Shown piece by piece: positions 2 through 61,685 of a stretch of DNA of 64,000 nucleotides. The stretch is taken from the IMG/VR virus record IMGVR_UViG_3300044729_001198, positions 32,001 through 96,000 of that record; one strand, given 5' to 3'. The notes under the pieces were generated by a model, which saw nothing but the letters and a program-made list of their open reading frames with translations, was not told the origin of the DNA and did no database searches. Position 1 is the stretch's first letter, and every line of letters begins with the position of its first letter. This DNA is from a virus. Both the position numbers and the translations under genes were made by a program.

Positions 2-3000
2 TTGTAAGTATACGTTATCGGTAGCAAGACCAAAACCTGGATTTGGATTTCCAAATACCATGTTACTTCCTGCCAACCCGCTCAAGTCTCCTAATCTGGC
101 TTTTAGTTCAACATCATAGATTCCACTACCAGTTCTTTCAACAATATCCATGTAAGGAGTAGCTTCGTCATTTGGATTTGCATTAATACGAATAAATCCG
201 GTGTTTAATTTACCAGTTGATACTAAAACTTGACCGGCTTCATATGATTGTGAAATTGCAGGAGCATCACCAAGTGATGATGAATCACCCGTAATACCAT
301 ATCCGTATGAACGAGTAACATACAAGTATCCTTTGAAGTTAGTACCACTTGCAGGTTCTAATCGTGACGCGGTTTCGACCTTCACATATTCAGTAGAGAA
401 TCCAGTATCGTTTACTTTTTTAAGAACAAGGATTTCGCCATTTACAAATCCCGTAACATTATCCACCACAAAAACACTTGCCGATGGTGAAACGTTGGTG
501 TATAGTACATCAACACTACTTTGACTACCAGCTGTTATTGTTGCTGATGTATTTGTGGAACTTGAGTATATGATAACACTTGACGTGTAGGTTGTTTGTA
601 ATGGCGCTTGAATTGACGAGGTGTCAATCTTGATATTATTTGAATCAATTCGTTCAAGAATTGGATATGTTCTTGTAGTACCACCAGCATCAAACGTTAT
701 CTGACCCTTTTGTGCAATAGACGTTGGAAAGGTGCTACCTAACGTAGAAACCACATTAGACGAGGTTTGTGAGTAAGAAATCGAAGAAGATAGTCTTGAC
801 ATCGTAATCTTCGTTCCTTGTGGATGTGGTGCTGTTGATGGGTCAAACGTGTAACCAGCATCAAAGTTAAATGAGAAAACACCACTTGCTAAATTAAAAA
901 TAGTAGCACGTGCTGTAGTTGACGGCGTACCATTGTCGGTAAAGATTGGGTCTACAGCAGCTATGTCTAATAATGGACCTATGAATGATGCGGTAGGCAC
1001 CGATGTATTGGGTAATAATGATGAATAAGAATCACTATCAAATCCCGGCTCGTTACCATTGTAATCATTTGATAAAAACGTTTCAGCTTCAAGATACGTT
1101 TGAATCGTAGTTGATAGCTGACGAGATGCTGTTACGTTTATACTTGTGTTTGTATTACTTTGTGAATAGTATAGTGTAGCAGAAGCTACATTTGCGTATA
1201 TTGGAGTACCTATTGTAAAATGTGTTGAATCTGCTTTAGATACTAACAAATAGTTGTTTCCACTATAATTTACATAATCATTACCAATTTGATTTCCAAA
1301 TCCACTTGGTAAACTTGTGGATGATGTAATCATTGAAGATGATATTGTTAATAATGTACTTACAGCAGAACCACTCACAGTAGTTGAATTTGCTATATAT
1401 AATTGACCACCAACAGCGTTTACGGATTCCTTTTCGAACGTAGTTGTTTTTAAAGTACCTCTTACTGAAATGTTTTCGAATTCAGCTTTACCATCTTGTC
1501 CGATTTTCCAACCCTTAACACCACTTGCGAAGTCTCGTGTTTGTATCTTACCACTTGAATTTATATCCAAGTTACTACTGAATATACTGCCAGTATTTAC
1601 ACCCCACCCACCAATACTTGCAGATACGAATTTTGCAAAACCTTGTGAGGTTATAGATGAAGATGCGTTATTGATATTTGATGGGGCTCCATCGATTGTA
1701 GCCGGTGTAAACAATTGATTGACTGATAGTCCAGCGTTGATAACTGCGTCAGCTCCAATAATCAATAAATTATTTTGAGGGTCAAGGTGGAATAATGATG
1801 AACTAATTTCAATGTTACCGTCAGAGCCACTTATAAATTGTGAACCAGTAGTACCAATAAAGAACTTTTCAGCTTTAATGTCAAGACTACCACCATCCTC
1901 GGTGGAGAATATCAAATGAGCATTATCATTAGGACCTACGAGTTGCATACCAACACCGGTCAATGTGTCAGCTCCAACTTGTAAAGCACCACTACCACTA
2001 TAGATTATGAATCCACCAGGACCAATTCCTTGTGATGCAGAAGTTTGACCTTCGTATCCAACCGAGCGTAAGAATCCACTTGATACGCCAGCAAGTTCTA
2101 TACCACTACCAATTGTATTACCAATGAAAAAAGAACCTGTGATTATAGATTGGTTTCCAGCAATGTATACGTTACCGCCAGGAAAAACAATATTATCAAC
2201 AATCAAAGAATAATCTGAAACTTCTCCGTTGATATTTAAAAATTGTAATTTAACACTCTTCGGGTCGTTGAGGTGTTCGGTTGGAATCGGTACTCTAAAA
2301 TATTGACTACCAGTTAATGGTACTCGTGTACTTCCTATGATTTGATAATCACCAGATATACCTTTGGATTTTATTAAGGTAGTGATACTATAAACACGAC
2401 CTACCAATGGTTCAAGGTTTGAGAGAGTTATGTTAGCGAACGAAATTTGATTTTGAGTCGCTACATATGATGATGTTGAATAATATGAAATGTTGGCTGA
2501 AACAATACCATCTGAATAATCATATGTGTGAATTGATTTAGAACTTCTATTATCACTTTGAGTTATTGGTGAATCAATTCTTAATACATTATTAGAATAT
2601 ACTTCAGTAATACTTGATGTAAATCGAGTTGGTTGTGATTGTCCAGTTAATCTTGGAAATAATGTTACGTTTCCAAAATCCAAACGTAAAGAACCACTAA
2701 CCATTTCACCATTAAATAAATCACCACTAACACGTTCTATGGAGATTTTATCACCCCAATTTGATTTTTTATAATATACTAACGATGAAGCCGTTACAGC
2801 ATTTAAACTACCACTTGTTGATGGTATGTTTACAAAAGTTTCTATTGATGCTGAAATTGTACATTTTGGTAATGAGGTTTGGTCAAATACAATTTTTGAT
2901 GTAGATGGTAAGTCCACTCTAATAGGAACTCTTCGTGACCATCTAATGTTTTGTCGATTCACCCACTCCGATGGGACGTTTGCAGAAGTTCCTACAAATA

Positions 3001-3334
3001 TCACCTCACCAACACCAGGAGCCGTGTCGTATTTATCATTTCTATTAGCGTAAACCCAAATAGAAATTAAACGAGTTTCATCCTCATCCTTTATATCAGA
3101 AATTTCCCAATAAACAGGTCGACCCGATTGGTCCAATATCTCGATATCAATTTCAGTATTGTCTTCGAGGTTTTTGGAATTACCACGAACTTTAATAGAA
3201 GATTTACCATCACCTAAATATGATGGGAAATCCACGATTGCGAAGTATTCAGCCGAATCTACCGAGGTATCTTCGATGTATACATCTATATCTTTTAGGT
3301 TCTCTTTACTCTTTACTTTGAGTTCTAAAGCCAT
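2..3334 (-). CDS. Large virion structural / tail-fibre-like protein (>1110 aa, runs off the left edge; absent from the ORF track)
   Basis: Manual translation from ATG at 3334 (MALELKVKSKENLKDIDVYIEDTS...) stays open to the edge. S/T/G-rich beta-type sequence; contains fibre-like 'GWKIGQDGKAEFENISVRG' and 'KARLGDLSG' segments. Confidence 0.75.
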   Translation of the reverse strand, partial: MALELKVKSKENLKDIDVYIEDTSVDSAEYFAIVDFPSYLGDGKSSIKVRGNSKNLEDNTEIDIEILDQSGRPVYWEISDIKDEDETRLISIWVYANRNDKYDTAPGVGEVIFVGTSANVPSEWVNRQNIRWSRRVPIRVDLPSTSKIVFDQTSLPKCTISASIETFVNIPSTSGSLNAVTASSLVYYKKSNWGDKISIERVSGDLFNGEMVSGSLRLDFGNVTLFPRLTGQSQPTRFTSSITEVYSNNVLRIDSPITQSDNRSSKSIHTYDYSDGIVSANISYYSTSSYVATQNQISFANITLSNLEPLVGRVYSITTLIKSKGISGDYQIIGSTRVPLTGSQYFRVPIPTEHLNDPKSVKLQFLNINGEVSDYSLIVDNIVFPGGNVYIAGNQSIITGSFFIGNTIGSGIELAGVSSGFLRSVGYEGQTSASQGIGPGGFIIYSGSGALQVGADTLTGVGMQLVGPNDNAHLIFSTEDGGSLDIKAEKFFIGTTGSQFISGSDGNIEISSSLFHLDPQNNLLIIGADAVINAGLSVNQLFTPATIDGAPSNINNASSSITSQGFAKFVSASIGGWGVNTGSIFSSNLDINSSGKIQTRDFASGVKGWKIGQDGKAEFENISVRGTLKTTTFEKESVNAVGGQLYIANSTTVSGSAVSTLLTISSSMITSSTSLPSGFGNQIGNDYVNYSGNNYLLVSKADSTHFTIGTPIYANVASATLYYSQSNTNTSINVTASRQLSTTIQTYLEAETFLSNDYNGNEPGFDSDSYSSLLPNTSVPTASFIGPLLDIAAVDPIFTDNGTPSTTARATIFNLASGVFSFNFDAGYTFDPSTAPHPQGTKITMSRLSSSISYSQTSSNVVSTLGSTFPTSIAQKGQITFDAGGTTRTYPILERIDSNNIKIDTSSIQAPLQTTYTSSVIIYSSSTNTSATITAGSQSSVDVLYTNVSPSASVFVVDNVTGFVNGEILVLKKVNDTGFSTEYVKVETASRLEPASGTNFKGYLYVTRSYGYGITGDSSSLGDAPAISQSYEAGQVLVSTGKLNTGFIRINANPNDEATPYMDIVERTGSGIYDVELKARLGDLSGLAGSNMVFGNPNPGFGLATDNVYLQ

Positions 3335-3352
3335 TAATTAACTCCAACTTTC

Positions 3353-6300
3353 TTATAAATATCTAATAGATGAAAACCCCTTCACTTTATTGATATCTAT
3401 AATTTGGTCTACCATGTCTCGTGTCTTGTCAATATGAGATATTGTAATAATAAAATCAAATTGTGTCTTTAAGTAATCAAATAATAAATAGAGAGAATTA
3501 AAGTTGTCCGTGTCAAGTGACCCAAATCCTTCGTCAATAGCAATAAAGTTTGGTCTTGGTAAATTTGATACATTGATTAAAGCAGTTCTAATTGCAATCG
3601 AACTAACAAACTTTTCCATACCACTTGTTAGCTCTAATGGCCACACCTTATCATCACCATAACATATGTAGGAGTTTATATTTTTACCATCAGTATTCAA
3701 TAGGATTTGGAAGTCAACAATCGGTTGTAAAATGTTATTGATTTCAATTTCAAGTTTTGGTAGTATTTCAGAAATCAACTGATATGGAACTCCATCACGT
3801 TTTACACATTTTAAATAGTATTCGTAACCATCGTATTTTGCTTCCATGTGTTGAAGTTTGCCAATAGATTGATTCACCATTTCGATTGTTTTTTCAGCAA
3901 TTTTAATATCACTATACACCGACATGATTTCATTAGTAACTTCTTGAATCTCATTTGAGATAGAGGTTTGTGTGAGTTTAAGAGAATTTACATTCATCAT
4001 AACATCAGCATTGAACTCAACTGCTTTTTGTTGGAGTTTAGCTCTACCAATAGTTTCAATTAAGGTATCAATCTCCCTACTATAAGTCATTAACATGGCG
4101 TTACAAGAGTCATAGTTTTTAGAAGTCTGATAACTTAATTTTGATAACTCAACATCCATCTGATTTAGTTTGTTGACTTTTTCGAGAGATTCTTTAACAT
4201 TATATTTTGTCTTGTTTTCACGAGCAGTTTCCAACTCACCAAGTCGAGTTAGTAAAGTTAAATGTAATCCACGAATTTCTTTTTGTAAAGACTGCGCTTG
4301 TTTAGCAAATGGTGTATTTTTATTTTGAACACAATGTTCACAATTATCATCAAATGTAAGCGAACCAATACCATCCAAATGTTTTTGTTTGTGTTTAATT
4401 TCCGATTCAAGTTGGTTTTGGCTTATAAGAATATCAGATTCAATACCATTCCACTTTTGCCATTCTAAATCCATCTCCTTCAACTTATCAACGTCTAGTT
4501 CAATAAGTTTATCAGAAACACGTTTACGTTTTTCTTCAACATCATTTAATTCTACTTTGATTGAATCACACTCTTCTTGATGTTTTTCAAGTTTCTCAAT
4601 AACACTACCAAGTTTAGATTCTAAAGAATCAACATCTTCAATATCTTCAACCGGTTTTAAAGTCATTACATAATCTGATATTTGATTTTGTATCTCAAGT
4701 GTCTTGGATTCCAATTCGTCTTTTTTTGATTGATACTCCGTAAGAGAACCTGTGATTGATGTCAACGTAGTTTGGGAATCAGCAAGTTGACCAGGTAGGT
4801 CTTGGTTTTTATAGTCTTTAAGTAGAGCTGATAATTCTTTAATCTCTTCACTTGCTACTTGATACAAATCTTCAAACACATCCATATCCAAGAATTGCGC
4901 AAGAAGTTCCTTACGTTCTTTTTGAGATTTATCAATGAACCCACTATTGTTTGATTGTGTTGACATAGCGGTCAAAACAAAATCATCATAAGTACCAACG
5001 TAATCACGGATAATAAAGTTTGTATCTCTACGTTGTTCACCATTCAGAGATTCAGCAACACCATTTACAAGTTTATAAAAGTTTACGTCAACTTTAACAG
5101 TACCACGTTTTGGGCTCTTTTTAGCAGCCCTTTCAATTACATATACTTCACCATTGACATCAAAAGTGAACTTACAATCAAATGACATCTTTGAGTAATT
5201 CATAACGTCTTCAGCCTTTGAGGTTCGTGAACACTTATCAAAGATACAAAACGCAAGAGCATCCCATAATGTAGACTTACCACTTGCGTTTGGGGCAAAG
5301 ATACCATAAGCACCTTTCATATTTGTAAAGTCAATAACGTTGTTAGGTCCATATGAAAACATATTTGAGAACTCAAATCTAACAGGAGTCCAAATAGAAT
5401 TTTTCATGGTGTGATTAGAACCCAACTTTGCGTTTATATCATTATTGATTGATTTTACAATCTGAAGTTGTTCATCGGAGATTTGGTCGTTAGTAGTTAG
5501 GTAATCCTCAATCAGTCGATTTTGAAAAGCAACGTCTCTGACATTTTGTAATGTTATTTGATGTGCTCCATTTTGTGAATTTTTACTGATAATCTTTTGA
5601 ATCGTAAGTTCTTCAATTTTGGTTTCTTTTTTCAACTCTGCAATTACACCATTCAAATCGGATTGTTTAGTATCCTTAACACGAATTCTCATCCGTGACT
5701 TCGTTGGGAATTTAGGTTTGTTTACAATAACACCCTCATCTACGTCAACAGTTACATATCCAAAATCATTTTCAATAGCAACAAATTCATGAGTACATGA
5801 TTTAGAATCCCAAACCAATAATCCATGGTTTGGATATAAAGATTCACTATGGTTTTGCATAATCAATGAACCGGGGTACATGATTAATTTATTACCATTT
5901 ACAGCATTGTTTGGAACGTGAATGTCACCCAACAACACCATATCGTAACCAGCAAACGAATCAGCGTTTATGTTATGGTTCTCAATTTCAAAACCATGTT
6001 CGGTTTGAATCTTGTCAACGGCTCCGTGGAACAAAGCAATCTTTACACTGTCTTTGATTTCCGATGATGGTATAAACCCTTTAGCGTCATCAAATACCGA
6101 TTGATGTGTGAATGTGTAGTCTCCATTCAACGTTTGCCAAACACCACTATCTTTTAAATAAAATAAGTTATTATGATTTAGAGCGTTGACAATTGGTTGA
6201 ATAGCATCCATCCGTGATGGGTTATTCAAGTTAGCATCGTGGTTGCCCGGAATGACAATGGTTGGTAGTAAATCGGCTAATGACTTCAAAAACTTTTGAG

Positions 6301-7461: not shown

Positions 7462-7492
7462 TAGGTCAAATATACGAAATTATTTTGAATAA

Positions 7493-7912
7493 TCAAAAAA
7501 AACTTTGTGTTGGTGTTTCGTCCAACCATTCTTGTGGTATTTCTTTCTTTGCCCACTTGAATCCGTACTTATCACACCATTCAGCATATGTCGTTTTTGA
7601 CCCTTTGTAAATTTTACCATTAGGCGATTGTAAGACAAATCGAATATCAAGTTCAGGATGTTGTTCTTTAATCAATAAGTGTTTTTTTCGGTCTTCAGGT
7701 AAGAACCAACCTTTTGATTCTATAAAGATACCATTTGGTAATCTGAAATCCGGCTTGTAAGTGTGATGTGATGCTGGGATGGTGTAGTTTATTTCATGCT
7801 TTTCATACTCACCATCAACACCTTGAATTCGTAACTGTTCGTTTATCTTATCTTCAAGACCCGACTTATGTCCTTTGGTCTTTTGGATATGACTCCAATT
7901 TCCTTTTGCCAT
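7493..7912 (-). CDS. T7 endonuclease I-like Holliday junction resolvase
   Basis: SGLE...YKPDFRLPNGIFIESKGWFLPEDRKKHLLIKEQHPELDIRFV closely follows the T7 gp3 pattern. Confidence 0.88.
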   Translation of the reverse strand: MAKGNWSHIQKTKGHKSGLEDKINEQLRIQGVDGEYEKHEINYTIPASHHTYKPDFRLPNGIFIESKGWFLPEDRKKHLLIKEQHPELDIRFVLQSPNGKIYKGSKTTYAEWCDKYGFKWAKKEIPQEWLDETPTQSFF

Positions 7913-7921
7913 AACTTATTT

Positions 7922-8554
7922 TTATCCCGCGTTAAATGTCCTTTGAATAAAATATATAACTCCGGCTATACTAACATTACCGCCGGTACATTGTACTTTC
8001 CATTGGTTACCATTTGTTACAAAATCAACATCACCATAAAAATGAAACACTTCGTAAAAGTTTTCCCATGTATCATTACCTTTTCCAAAAACCAATGTTT
8101 TAGAAACTCTATCATATGGAGTAGCTCCTGTGGATGATAATGATACATCCATATGTGTTTGATTTGCATTTGAACTTTTGGCTTTAAATGTGACAACCAC
8201 CGTATGGACATCGCCTTCATTTTCAATTTGAATTTTTTTAGAAGAACCATCATAAAAATTAATGGATGAATTCATATATGAATTTATTGTATTAGCTGCA
8301 TTATTTGGTAAAACTACAGCAGTAGCTCCATCCGTAACTACATATGCTGATGATGTTGTATATTGACCATCATCATATCTAGCCCACCCAAGACCAGTAC
8401 CACCTAAACCACTTGGTAAAGAACCTGTTATATTATTAACTAAATCTTGGAAGTCTACTTTTTTAGTTTCACCGGCACTAACGTCTACTACGGCAAAAAC
8501 ATCATTTGATGCAATTTCATTAAGTTCAGTAAATTGTGTTATTCTTTTATCCAT
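7922..8554 (-). CDS. Putative virion / fibre-associated protein
   Basis: N-terminus KRITQFTEL...DVFAVVDVS...TKKV resembles fibre attachment starts; beta-rich C-terminus; lies in the structural module. Confidence 0.5.
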   Translation of the reverse strand: MDKRITQFTELNEIASNDVFAVVDVSAGETKKVDFQDLVNNITGSLPSGLGGTGLGWARYDDGQYTTSSAYVVTDGATAVVLPNNAANTINSYMNSSINFYDGSSKKIQIENEGDVHTVVVTFKAKSSNANQTHMDVSLSSTGATPYDRVSKTLVFGKGNDTWENFYEVFHFYGDVDFVTNGNQWKVQCTGGNVSIAGVIYFIQRTFNAG

Positions 8555-8558
8555 TTTC

Positions 8559-8765
8559 TTACCAAATTATTCGTGAACCATCTTGTTGTAATATATATGA
8601 ACCATCTTCTTGTAGAATATATCGACCCCCAGGTCGTCTATGTGATTGTTGCCTCAATATAAATTCTTGTTGTTCTTTTAGTAATAAAAAATTATAAGAC
8701 CTTACAATCTCATTTAATGGTAACTTATCTTTGTGTTGTTGATAATAATGTGACCATTGTATCAT
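8559..8765 (-). CDS. Small protein with repeated YILQ(E/Q)DGS motif
   Basis: 68 aa; tandem YILQEDGS/YILQQDGS; tight spacing with neighbouring genes. Confidence 0.55.
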   Translation of the reverse strand: MIQWSHYYQQHKDKLPLNEIVRSYNFLLLKEQQEFILRQQSHRRPGGRYILQEDGSYILQQDGSRIIW

Positions 8766-8767
8766 GA

Positions 8768-10195
8768 TTAATCCAAATCAAATTTTACATTTATAGTGAC
8801 ATCAACGTCTTGTCTTTTTTTCAAAGGTGAGCCTAATTTAGCAACAGCTAACAAGTCACCAAAGTCATTATACAAACCAACTTGAGTAATATATGGTCTG
8901 AAGTCTGAACCAGTTACCATTGATTTTAGTCTTGGTTCGTTTTCATCATAAGTTACTTTTAAAGATGGGTTGGACGATACATTATATTCATCACGATTAA
9001 TTTCACAAAGAATCGATACCTCTTCAATTTGTTTGGTAGCTTTATAATTTAACTCAAAGCCTTTGTTTGTGTAATCAAAATCACCATTACCCAAAAACAT
9101 ATTTTGATATCGAGGTCGAGGGTCGGTAACTACAACCATACCATGTTTATAAAAAACATATCCAACTTCTTTTCGTTGCAGAGCAGAGCCGCTGGTTGAA
9201 TTATTTGATAATGATGATATAACACTCGATGATAACTCATTCCTATGTAGTCTAAATTGTGCAATTGAACCCGAAAACCCTAAACCGCCAGGAGATATGG
9301 TATCACTACCAATTACAATATCATTATCATTACTAACTAATTCAGCAAATGAGTATGACCCACTAACGTCCTTAACCCCATCTATATACAATGCTAATTC
9401 ATTTCCCACTTTATTTAAAGCGTAGTGGTGAAATGTCCCATCATTAACAGCAGTAGATGAAGATATATTTAGAGTTGAAATACCATCTGATGCTCTGACA
9501 AAAACGTGACCGGGAGATGCTGGGTGTAGTTCGGTATAAACTGAAAAGTCAAATGGGTAGTTTGGTAAATTATTTGTTTGAGTTCTCTCTATCCCATTTG
9601 CATCAAAGTATGTTTGTACATTTCTTTTTTGTATGATGGTTTGAGTTCCAACACCAGCCAATGATTGTGATGGTGGGATGTTAGCCCAAAATGAAACAGC
9701 CCAGTTATCTACCTTGTTAAGTATATTAAAGTTTTGTTTGTGTTTGATTTGGATATTATTATATTGATTAAAATTATAAAAATTACCAACACCTAAACTT
9801 GGGTTTGAAACCACACCACCAACGGAAATGGGAGTGCTTTCAGATGGAGTCGGCTCCGATTGTAAGGTAGCAGCTCCATTAATTGTCAAGGCATATATAT
9901 TATTTGGATTTAACTTTACAGTTTGAATTATTATCAAACCACTTTGTATGTAAGCTCCAATAACACCAGACCCATTTGTATACGGTACGCCATCAAGTAC
10001 AAAAGAAATATCACCAACAGAAGTAAATTCATAACCACTATCAGGATGAAGATATGCTACGTTATATAGATATGCTCCGGCTTGTGTTCCGGTTACTACT
10101 CGTGTCGTGATAGCCGACCCATATGGATTTGTATCGGCTCTTAAAGTAGAGTTAGTTACGTTGTTTGTATAATTGGTTCTTAATGAATATGACAT
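8768..10195 (-). CDS. LamG/ConA-like domain baseplate/fibre protein with tail-collar-like C-terminus
   Basis: WAVSFW...DGTFHHYALNK...LYIDGV...FSGSIAQFRLH (LamG); C-terminal YITQVGLYNDFGDLLAVAKL. Confidence 0.75.
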   Translation of the reverse strand: MSYSLRTNYTNNVTNSTLRADTNPYGSAITTRVVTGTQAGAYLYNVAYLHPDSGYEFTSVGDISFVLDGVPYTNGSGVIGAYIQSGLIIIQTVKLNPNNIYALTINGAATLQSEPTPSESTPISVGGVVSNPSLGVGNFYNFNQYNNIQIKHKQNFNILNKVDNWAVSFWANIPPSQSLAGVGTQTIIQKRNVQTYFDANGIERTQTNNLPNYPFDFSVYTELHPASPGHVFVRASDGISTLNISSSTAVNDGTFHHYALNKVGNELALYIDGVKDVSGSYSFAELVSNDNDIVIGSDTISPGGLGFSGSIAQFRLHRNELSSSVISSLSNNSTSGSALQRKEVGYVFYKHGMVVVTDPRPRYQNMFLGNGDFDYTNKGFELNYKATKQIEEVSILCEINRDEYNVSSNPSLKVTYDENEPRLKSMVTGSDFRPYITQVGLYNDFGDLLAVAKLGSPLKKRQDVDVTINVKFDLD

Positions 10196-26213: not shown

Positions 26214-26267
26214 AACTTTTTATATTATATTAAATCAAATATACGAAATTCTTTTGAAGAATCCAAA

Positions 26268-41536: not shown

Positions 41537-41595
41537 AACTTTTTATTTTTGATAATACAAATATACGAAATAATTTTCAAATAAACAAATTTTTA

Positions 41596-43031: not shown

Positions 43032-43215
43032 TGTAATATCTTATCTCCGGTTTTTACTTATGGTTTGTTCCCCATAACCTGTTGACGTGCACATCAGAGC
43101 AGGGACCTGAACATAGTCTACTGAGCCGTTTCCAAACTTCCGATTTGTGGTTGCGACCCACTTGGAAGTCAGTAGTCCTTTCAGAGAAGCGATATCTCCT
43201 TATGTAGATATTACA
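43032..43215 (-). ncRNA. Putative 184-nt multibranch structured RNA
   Basis: Closed by TGTAATATCT/AGATATTACA; at least four internal stems; lies between two tRNA-shaped genes. Confidence 0.55.
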
Positions 43216-43218
43216 TTG

Positions 43219-43290
43219 AGCGGAGAGGTGGTTCTGCCCCACCATCTCTCATCTGGTTGATGAGTGAGTTTCTCTAAACTCCTCCTCCGC
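43219..43290 (-). ncRNA. Non-canonical tRNA-Gly-like cloverleaf, copy 1 (loop CAACCAG)
   Basis: GCGGAGG AG GAGT TTAGAGAA ACTC A CTCAT CAACCAG ATGAG AGAT GGTGG GGCAGAA CCACC TCTCCGC T. Confidence 0.85.
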
Positions 43291-43368
43291 GTTGTAGGTA
43301 TGAATCTCCGGTAACACTCGAATTAGATTCACTGCAGGCGGTTTCATTCCTGTCTTCAATTCATACCT

Positions 43369-43444
43369 TGGAGCCACCAGAGGGACTCGAACCCCCGACC
43401 TACTGATTACAAATCAGTAGCTCTACCAACTGAGCTATGGTGGC
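43369..43444 (-). tRNA. tRNA-Thr (TGT), CCA encoded
   Basis: GCCACCA/TGGTGGC stem, CTGAT-TTGTAAT-CAG region, TTCGAGT loop. Confidence 0.93.
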
Positions 43445-43516
43445 TTTTGAGAGGGGTGTTTTAGTGAGTGCTAACTTACCCCCCTCGGTGGGCTAGACTC
43501 AGCAGTTACTCGGCGA

Positions 43517-43666
43517 TTACTCGGCGCTAGTTGTGTCTACAACAGCGGTAGTATCTACAACAGCAGTCGTGTCAACGGCAGTAGAATCTACTGAAGTCTC
43601 TTCGGTTGAAGTTGAGCAAGATACCAAAGCCAAGGTAGCTACGAAAGCAAACAATACTTGTTTCAT
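43517..43666 (-). CDS. 49-aa lipoprotein with D(S/T)TAV repeats (not in track)
   Basis: MKQVLFAFVATLALVSC-STSTEETSVDSTAVDTTAVVDTTAVVDTTSAE; lipobox LVSC. Confidence 0.8.
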   Translation of the reverse strand: MKQVLFAFVATLALVSCSTSTEETSVDSTAVDTTAVVDTTAVVDTTSAE

Positions 43667-43712
43667 GGTTCGTTTCTCATTATTAAGGTTAAACATATGT
43701 GAACTAAATTTG

Positions 43713-43784
43713 AGCGGAGAGTTGGAACTGCCCCAACACCTCTTATCTGGTTGATAAGCGACTTTCTTTTAAGTCTTTCCCCGC
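43713..43784 (-). ncRNA. Non-canonical tRNA-Gly-like cloverleaf, copy 2 (loop CAACCAG)
   Basis: GCGGGGA AA GACT TAAAAGAA AGTC G CTTAT CAACCAG ATAAG AGGT GTTGG GGCAGTT CCAAC TCTCCGC T; promoter directly upstream. Confidence 0.85.
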
Positions 43785-43794
43785 GATTGTTTAA

Positions 43795-43826
43795 CAAATA
43801 TACGAAATAAATTTCATATTGCCAAA
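43795..43826 (-). promoter_or_regulatory. Bacteroidota sigma-A-type promoter for the atypical tRNA-Gly-like RNA
   Basis: TTTG-N20-TATATTTG ending 11 nt before the RNA 5' end. Confidence 0.8.
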
Positions 43827-43873
43827 TCTTTTTTAAAAAAACCCCGACCTAGCTCGGGATAACACATCGGATG

Positions 43874-45405: not shown

Positions 45406-45437
45406 CAAATATACGAAATAAGTATGAGATTGCCAAA
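45406..45437 (-). promoter_or_regulatory. Bacteroidota sigma-A-type promoter heading the Leu-Arg-shell-Glu RNA operon
   Basis: TTTG-N20-TATATTTG. Confidence 0.8.
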
Positions 45438-57201: not shown

Positions 57202-57452
57202 CTCAATCATTACAGAGTAAAGGTAATGATAGTATTTCAATAAAACAAGCTTTTAATGTTAATTTTTTGTTAAGTTTTCAACAAGTTATTAACACTCTGG
57301 AACCCTTATTCCCGTTGAGTTCCAGAGCCCCGTGTTATTATTTAGCTATTTTTTTTTATATAATAGCACCCGCACAGTACAAATATACGAAATAATATGC
57401 AACTTGCCAAATATCTTGCCATTTTTTTCAAAAAAGTTATTAACAATTTCTT

Positions 57453-61653: not shown

Positions 61654-61685
61654 CAAATATACGAAATTATTTTGAATTTTCCAAA
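61654..61685 (-). promoter_or_regulatory. Bacteroidota sigma-A-type promoter
   Basis: TTTG-N20-TATATTTG. Similar elements at 7467-7497, 26236-26267, 33809-33839, 41558-41589, 49237-49268, 57380-57411. Confidence 0.8.

Follow-up and report, generated by a model that had tools for sequence, protein, structure and literature searches.

What use might a phage have for tRNA-like molecules that can probably be loaded with glycine and that seem, from their bases, unfit for reading codons? The question is raised by two short RNAs in a 64,000-nucleotide (nt) stretch of DNA, the window, which covers bases 32001-96000 of the 186,631-bp uncultured virus record IMGVR_UViG_3300044729_001198 (98% complete, 36% G+C; labelled G000 below, with L-numbers as labels of related loci). 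Both RNAs are 72-nt cloverleafs read on the minus strand, copy 1 at 43219..43290 (G1 = 43290, C72 = 43220, U73 = 43219) and copy 2 at 43713..43784 (G1 = 43784, C72 = 43714, U73 = 43713). We propose that they are probably phage-encoded, non-decoding derivatives of tRNA-Gly that act as dedicated glycyl carriers for the momylation of DNA by the enzyme Mom, a reading that draws on sequence conservation across a family of relatives and on analogy with known systems.

The two RNAs and their family

In each copy the acceptor stem has 7 bp, the D stem 4-5 bp, the anticodon and T stems 5 bp apiece and the variable region 4 nt; the discriminator base is U73. The minimum free energy (MFE) fold is a four-arm cloverleaf in both cases, at -31.5 kcal/mol for copy 1 (z = -4.1) and -26.1 kcal/mol for copy 2 (z = -3.3), with 0 of 200 shuffles as stable as either. 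These folds bear out a first-pass annotation, made from the letters alone, that had placed two cloverleafs here without stating their strand; the plus-strand reading of both RNAs was ruled out by a weaker fold and by the minus-strand orientation of all neighbouring RNA genes. The copies are identical in 63 of 78 aligned columns (~81%), and where the D, anticodon and T stems differ the changes compensate each other, as had also been claimed: the D stem reads GAGU/ACUC in copy 1 and GACU/AGUC in copy 2, and the T stem GGUGG/CCACC and GUUGG/CCAAC, respectively. Common to the two are the anticodon loop CAACCAG, a T-loop that begins with GGCAG (GGCAGAA in copy 1, GGCAGUU in copy 2), the 3' trailer CAA, and G1-C72, C2-G71, G3-C70, U73, C35 and C36, which together constitute the identity set of glycyl-tRNA synthetase (GlyRS; PMC7826273). 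The loops and identity bases are thus as the annotation had described them.

The copies depart from ordinary tRNAs in the bases that hold the core together. They carry A8, U14 and A33 and a D-loop of the form UUAGAGAA or UAAAAGAA, and they are without U8, U33 and the TTC of the T-loop. Among the nine tRNAs that ARAGORN finds in the window neither copy appears, and a 4-kb search with the Rfam tRNA model RF00005 gave no match to either even at E <= 10. Compared with that family, the cloverleaf shape is present, but recognition by a gene finder and the set of universal core bases (those checked were U8, A14, G18 G19, T54 Psi55 C56 and U33) are absent. The canonical tRNA-Gly(GCC) of the same phage (42955..43028, minus strand; called by ARAGORN and by Rfam at 71.8 bits) provides the most direct comparison. 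Its cloverleaf is of the same size, and its GCG/CGC/U73 acceptor top and CAA trailer recur in both copies, whereas its D-loop (GG), its U33 and its TTCGAAT T-loop are normal. Unlike canonical tRNA-Gly, the copies have the U8:A14 pair swapped, G18 and U33 lost and T54-Psi55 replaced by GG, and their C32 can pair with G38, which would shrink the anticodon loop to 5 nt. In the T stem the copies have G49-C65, G/U50-C/A64 and U51-A63, against G49-U65, G50-C64 and G51-C63 in the tRNA-Gly(GCC).

Relatives were gathered by pattern scans of IMG/VR, JGI metagenomes and GTDB genomes, with a covariance model built from seven members (R1) as the filter; on this model copy 1 scores 96.4 bits and copy 2 97.6 bits. 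The first-pass annotation had suggested a covariance search across phages, and it does yield a family, which occupies well over 100 contigs of freshwater, marine and estuarine phages together with a few contigs from metagenome-assembled genomes (MAGs). In the bacterial genome scan the matches listed were mostly high-GC chance matches, with a few MAG contigs as the only true members among them. Across 91 distinct cloverleaf members, 98.3% of the cells that should pair do so, and 17 of 21 pairs show two-sided changes; neither the covariation score nor the paired percentage is reached by any of 500 shuffles, and slid controls pair at 35-49%. Given this strong covariation and relatives in well over 100 uncultured phage contigs, the two RNAs are far beyond chance occurrence. 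An ortholog of copy 1 that differs by 1 nt is retained in related phages despite rearranged flanks, and orthologs of copy 2 (L179, L200, L208) are 91-93% identical, the upstream promoter region included. No family in Rfam 15 corresponds to these RNAs.

The pattern of conservation is telling. Eleven positions, namely G1, C2, G3, C70, G71, C72, U73, C74, C35, C36 and A37, are invariant in 86 of 86 sequences, and C32, G38, one D-loop G and the T-loop G54-G55-C56-A57-G58 are nearly so. Position 33, on the other hand, is A in 41 sequences, U in 25, G in 16 and C in 4, so that it is other than U in 61 of the 86, and position 34 is U in 47, A in 25 and C in 14. The family therefore keeps the GlyRS identity bases fixed and leaves the decoding bases 33 and 34 free, a pattern that at the family level favours the earlier suggestion of a glycine carrier that would be chargeable and yet non-decoding. 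Several of the search patterns had preset CCAG, GGGGCAG or CGCTC, and we therefore rescanned with only the D-loop and T-loop preset; in all 53 of 53 distinct Gly-type hits the acceptor was once more GCG...CGC-U73 and the loop NNCCA(G/A). The trailer U73-CCA is encoded in 23 of 77 distinct members (about a third).

As to the tRNA bases that the first-pass annotation listed as lost, the absence of U8, U33 and TTC from the copies stands; since the single D-loop G (plausibly G19) and C56 are near-invariant, the elbow is lost only in part. Similarly, most members have A8:U14, a minority U8:A14, and high-GC members C14, and the tertiary pair between positions 8 and 14 may be kept in swapped form rather than lost along with U8.

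The family looks like a derivative of tRNA-Gly, because canonical phage tRNA-Gly(GCC) genes, too, score 30-36 bits on R1. It is diverse in form. About a third of its members carry U33 with a UCC anticodon, some have an 8-nt loop, and one subtype (L209, L211, L221, L234, L236 and others) has no D arm at all. The D-armless RNAs are 68-69 nt long with an 11-12-nt linker, typically AAGCAGGCTAAC, in place of the arm; they keep the remaining family features, are 97% paired with compensatory changes in 12 of 20 pairs, have a bulged A in the T stem and encode U73-CCA. A 3-bp helix between the linker and the variable region is possible (90% paired, one compensatory change). In one array, the third copy (L289:5443-5522, plus strand) combines a tRNA-Gly acceptor, a canonical D-loop (GGG) and a canonical T-loop (TTCAAAT) with an 8-nt loop, CATTCCAG, and an encoded CCA; by its sequence it looks like an intermediate between a normal tRNA-Gly and the rebuilt family.

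Association with Mom

With no prior assumption, we clustered every open reading frame (ORF) of 70 aa or more from 104 RNA-bearing loci. The third most widespread cluster, present in 32 of the 104 loci, is Mom (PF25680, 1.5e-40; also phrog_1384), and Mom is the sole recurrent partner across all RNA subtypes. The association is clearer in whole IMG/VR records, where Mom occurs in 37 of 67 that bear the RNA, in 14 of 15 of those at least 60% complete and in 9 of 9 of those at least 90% complete. Control records, which were chance hits of a loose first pattern (16 fixed bases, variable gap), have Mom in 0 of 76, 0 of 36 and 0 of 19 at the same levels of completeness (Fisher p = 1e-11 for co-occurrence in whole records). 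All RNA-bearing records without Mom are fragments. Furthermore, the loci L209-L240, negative by the cloverleaf filter, contained Mom in 18 of 21 cases, and this revealed the D-armless RNA at the 3' end of mom.

The first-pass annotation had also proposed looking for GNAT-type aminoacyl-tRNA transferases in the full genome. Mom answers to that description: tightly linked to the RNA family elsewhere, it is present in this genome as three paralogs outside the window, all on the minus strand (G000:C1:138988-139563, 144040-144678 and 145381-146043), with PF25680 matches of 159, 155 and 118 bits against a cut-off of 27. The surrounding locus (L453; G000:C1:137500-147500) holds the three paralogs within ~7 kb, beside a family-B DNA polymerase and a GT4-like glycosyltransferase; two of them flank a 208-aa ORF that has no Pfam match.

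In many contigs the RNA and the enzyme are more than neighbours. In 49 of 51 distinct Mom-adjacent cases, which comprise three subtypes, the RNA is part of the mom ORF itself, within the last 25-45 codons at its 3' end, and the stop codon follows 4-75 nt past position 73. Examples are L303 (ORF 2333-3091, RNA 2996-3070, with the Pfam Mom match on residues 3-190), L172 (ORF 8068-8886, RNA 8787-8867) and L236 (ORF 2974-3695). The T-loop is crossed by two different reading frames in different embedded subtypes, which places the conservation at the level of the RNA and not of the peptide. A protein-coding explanation of the conserved element was rejected for this reason and because the copies in the window are intergenic. 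In the embedded forms, the mom mRNA would lose its stop codon if the RNA were excised.

The link holds when approached from the enzyme. Starting from one Mom protein of the embedded type, we collected 75 IMG/VR loci with relatives 46-100% identical to it; a generic detector found a tRNA-Gly or tRNA-Gly-like gene at the 3' end of mom in 62 of the 73 evaluable loci, and inspection of the misses by eye raised this to ~70 of 73, three of which have the gene on the opposite strand. The T-loops in this set range from canonical TTCGA/TTCAA to GGCAG and other forms. In L512, L514 and L517 (about 3600-3700), a tRNA-Gly(UCC)-like gene with a near-canonical T-loop overlaps the end of the mom ORF on the opposite strand.

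The constancy of this partner bears on two other explanations. The RNA could be a tRNA-shaped signal for processing or stability, at which cuts by RNase P or RNase Z punctuate a transcript or cap neighbouring RNAs such as the mRNA of a small lipoprotein or the freshwater-1 RNA, with no aminoacyl role. Such a signal would fit the way in which the element terminates the mom mRNA in other subtypes, and in the window the distance from copy 2 to a small ORF downstream of it is 47 nt, and that from copy 1 to freshwater-1, likewise downstream, 106 nt. RNase P, however, needs no C35, C36, U73 or encoded CCA, yet these are invariant positions, and neighbouring genes change between relatives while the RNA is kept. 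We consider a pure processing signal very unlikely. Most improbable in our judgement is a decoy or sponge, the alternative raised in the first-pass annotation, which would act against a host defence directed at tRNA-Gly or Gly-tRNA-Gly (a Gly-tRNA-acetylating GNAT toxin or a tRNA nuclease) or would titrate GlyRS. Phage tRNAs are known to counter tRNA-targeting defences, and the acceptor end that such toxins read is intact here. A decoy for an anticodon nuclease, on the other hand, should mimic the anticodon loop of the host, whereas positions 33 and 34 drift freely; only Mom recurs as a partner across all subtypes; and both the embedding in mom and the outcome of the search that started from Mom would be left unexplained. 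The decoy has gained no support from the present data. Both explanations are weakened by the same facts, as neither accounts for the conservation of the GlyRS identity bases and CCA or for the constant presence of Mom.

The putative carrier role

It was only in 2026 that the use of charged tRNA by Mom in DNA modification was established, for phage Mu, the glycine being supplied by host tRNA-Gly. In Mu, the GNAT enzyme Mom passes glycine from Gly-tRNA-Gly on to the N6 of deoxyadenosine in double-stranded DNA (Silva et al., Nat Commun 2026, PMC13219725; preprint 2023), and the product rearranges on the base to N6-carbamoylmethyl-deoxyadenosine (PMC13219725). Three E. coli isoacceptors all work, Gly-tRNA-Ala is rejected and the 3' terminal adenosine is needed; a phage-encoded tRNA is not mentioned in that paper (PMC13219725). 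The present system resembles that of Mu in the enzyme family, to which the three PF25680 paralogs (118-159 bits) belong, and the donor chemistry would match, namely a glycyl ester on the acceptor end of a tRNA-Gly. The acceptor features that the RNAs keep are those that Mom is thought to read, that is, the 3' end and the tRNA-Gly identity. Unlike Mu, which has no tRNA of its own and draws on all three host isoacceptors, this phage encodes a rebuilt carrier, which elsewhere lies within the mom frame.

A functional parallel is found in Staphylococcus, whose non-proteogenic tRNA-Gly species keep the GlyRS identity set and bind EF-Tu weakly (Rietmeyer et al. 2021, PMC7826273), and in which FmhB prefers these tRNAs via determinants in the D and T arms (PMC7826273). 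Like the phage RNAs, NP1-NP3, the donors for FmhB, FemA and FemB, combine retained GlyRS identity elements with D and T arms of altered form; what they supply is a tRNA-dependent transferase and not the ribosome, and this partition depends on those arms and on poor binding to EF-Tu. Unlike the phage RNAs, NP1-NP3 are a cellular lineage confined to staphylococci, with normal anticodon loops and peptidoglycan as the acceptor. No sequence kinship between the two groups is proposed other than that of tRNA-Gly in general, and the preferences regarding EF-Tu and the transferase, measured in Staphylococcus, are inferred here; we treat the resemblance as a functional analogy and not as membership.

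A second precedent comes from Dehalococcoides, in whose ssrA islands a conserved 76-bp tRNA-Gly-like 'pseudo-tRNA' with the anticodon DCC lies inside a mom homologue (McMurdie et al. 2011, PMC3146451). It was noted as a curiosity within the first 150 bp of the gene, and no function was offered (PMC3146451). A tRNA-Gly-like fold inside mom is also what many of the phage contigs show, but the Dehalococcoides element stands at the start of the gene, whereas the embedded phage RNAs stand at its 3' end and the copies in the window are free-standing; the elements are likened here by description. We found no paper that joins Mom chemistry, non-proteogenic tRNA-Gly and the mom-embedded pseudo-tRNA, and as far as the literature found shows, a dedicated non-proteogenic tRNA-Gly for Mom has not been described for phages. 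The link from mom-embedded tRNA-Gly-like folds to the glycyl-tRNA chemistry of Mom can now be drawn.

We envisage the following course of events. The RNAs would be transcribed with the tRNA array, copy 2 from a promoter of its own, trimmed as tRNAs are by RNase P and a 3' nuclease, and provided with CCA. Host glycyl-tRNA synthetase would charge them by way of the retained G1-C72, C2-G71, G3-C70, U73, C35 and C36. The loss of U33 and the rebuilt elbow of the D and T loops would, by analogy with the staphylococcal tRNAs, bar them from EF-Tu and the ribosome and may also hand Mom a handle. Mom would then move the glycyl group to the N6 of adenine in double-stranded phage DNA, where it would rearrange to N6-carbamoylmethyl-adenine and block restriction, as the chemistry of Mu Mom with host tRNA-Gly suggests. 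With a carrier of its own, the phage would not drain the tRNA-Gly needed for translation in a late burst of DNA modification, and this carrier could offer Mom a preferred substrate, as in Staphylococcus.

A number of findings weigh against this proposal. In this genome there is no local linkage, as the RNAs lie in a tRNA array 63-70 kb from the mom genes. The nine near-complete records with both RNA and Mom all derive from phages of ~170-186 kb and are probably one clade, and as such not phylogenetically independent; independent support for the link with Mom comes mainly from the three embedded subtypes. One family member, in the Dehalococcoidia MAG contig L357 (RNA at 1763-1842), lies in the 3' end of a different ORF (1726-2301, minus strand, 191 aa), which is not Mom by Pfam or hhalign and which is located directly upstream of the genes for the small and large terminase subunits. 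Among the cultured phages searched, no example was found either. Mom-like genes occur in 244 INPHARED records, and a blastn search of three RNA representatives against cultured phages returned nothing credible; R1 found none in Polaribacter phage P12002L, Synechococcus phage DSL-LC03, Melnitz, Aeromonas PX29, HGTV-1 and one fecal contig, a null result that is weak in that R1 covers the cloverleaf subtype only. Since Mu Mom works with ordinary tRNA-Gly, and since the cultured Mom-bearing phages that were checked are without the RNA, a private carrier is not required by Mom.

Further points against a dedicated carrier are the very ones that speak for decoding. The RNAs might be odd but working tRNA-Gly(ACC) molecules that serve a heavy use of GGT, for instance in collagen-like genes, their elbow being a peculiarity of the phage or an escape from host nucleases that target tRNAs. 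Their ACC 'anticodon' is cognate to GGT, which accounts for 66% of the glycine codons genome-wide and for 60% in collagen-like ORFs; the only canonical tRNA-Gly of the phage is GCC; the RNAs lie in the tRNA array and on its strand; and about a third of the family, as described above, has U33 with UCC. Moreover, the altered D-loop (AAAAGAA) and T-loop (GGCAGNN) recur with normal anticodon loops on two tRNAs of other identity (L445:1515-1588 and L447:12442-12517, both on the plus strand), of which one is a tRNA-Ile (GAU, with A73-CCA) and the other a tRNA-His (GUG, with G-1:C73 and CCA). ARAGORN calls neither. Each belongs to a tRNA array in which no further Ile or His gene is visible, and Mom was not found in their contigs, which at only 9-11% completeness are uninformative in this respect. 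The presence of this elbow on Ile and His tRNAs with normal loops means that an altered elbow is by itself no proof of exclusion from the ribosome. Several features argue against decoding. A33 is present in both copies of the window, C32 can pair with G38, most of the family is non-U at position 33, and the 8-nt-loop and D-armless variants belong to the same family, which tracks Mom rather than codon usage or tRNA arrays and is often found inside the mom ORF. Decoding is for these reasons an unlikely function.

A bolder extension, which we regard as unlikely, would make sense of the Ile and His tRNAs in terms of DNA modification as well. The GGCAG T-loop and rebuilt D-loop might constitute a purpose-built 'orthogonal elbow', a tag that assigns a tRNA to a DNA-modifying GNAT and conceals that tRNA from the ribosome and EF-Tu, in which case the elbows of L445 and L447 could point to Mom-like enzymes that add other amino acids to phage DNA. 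In the embedded forms, excision of the RNA would remove the mom stop codon, and synthesis of the enzyme and release of the carrier would be mutually exclusive and self-limiting.

Should the RNAs indeed be dedicated glycyl carriers for Mom, DNA hypermodification would have an insulated glycine supply of its own, a viral counterpart of the split of staphylococcal tRNA-Gly between translation and the cell wall. 'Pseudo-tRNA' calls and unannotated gaps beside mom genes, including the Dehalococcoides element of 2011, would be accounted for, and the RNA would be a simple genomic marker of phages with modified adenine. The natural pair of enzyme and tRNA, which may be orthogonal to translation, could serve studies of how GNAT enzymes choose their tRNAs and possibly the labelling of DNA.

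The tRNA island, its promoter-like motifs and metatranscriptome contigs

The copies belong to a minus-strand tRNA island in which the order of transcription is Leu, Arg, Glu, Ser, copy 2, the small ORF, Thr, copy 1, freshwater-1 RNA, Gly(GCC), Met and Gln. The freshwater-1 RNA (RF02979; 43052..43113, minus strand; Rfam 74.3 bits, gathering score 72) separates copy 1 from the tRNA-Gly(GCC). In the related phage L179 a 190-nt stretch with freshwater-1 is missing, and copy 1 directly adjoins the tRNA-Gly. The small ORF (43517-43696, minus strand) has no Pfam match; its product, 59 aa long when counted from the listed start, carries Thr/Val/Asp repeats and a signal of lipoprotein type (LVSC).

DNA of this phage is present in lake, freshwater and estuary metagenomes of 17 studies. 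Metatranscriptome contigs from four runs span 43046-43200 and 43483-43667; neither RNA is spanned, which is uninformative as to their expression. The first of these segments, which includes the freshwater-1 RNA, is covered by contigs of two studies, and the small ORF is covered by RNA contigs of three studies with zero differences. In two studies, contigs start at 43200 and 43667, ~19 nt and ~46 nt downstream of the RNA 3' ends. As DNA carry-over is possible in those libraries, these starts are at most a weak hint of RNA processing.

The first-pass annotation had given copy 2 a promoter of its own, and this holds as a match to a motif. A promoter-like element of the Bacteroidota -33/-7 type (43795..43826, minus strand; TTTG, 20 nt, TATATTTG; a consensus match only) ends 10 nt before G1, and a sigma-70-style scan also marks 43825-43797. 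Further upstream, between the tRNA-Ser and this motif, is a terminator-like hairpin with a T-run (43841..43860, minus strand), recognised likewise by consensus match only, in which a 7-pair stem is followed by TTTTTTT. Matches to TTTG-N17-22-TAnnTTTG number 13 in the window, where 3.8 would be expected, and none of 100 shuffles reaches this count; several of the sites share an extended core, typically TTTCGTATATTTG. A form with TTTGG, an AT-rich spacer and ATTTCGTATATTTG is found at 7467-7497, 26236-26267, 41558-41589, 43795-43826, 45406-45437, 57380-57411 and 61654-61685, in all cases on the minus strand; one of these sites precedes copy 2 and another the head of the tRNA array. A further instance of the motif (L453:7917-7948) precedes both the 208-aa ORF and the second Mom paralog.

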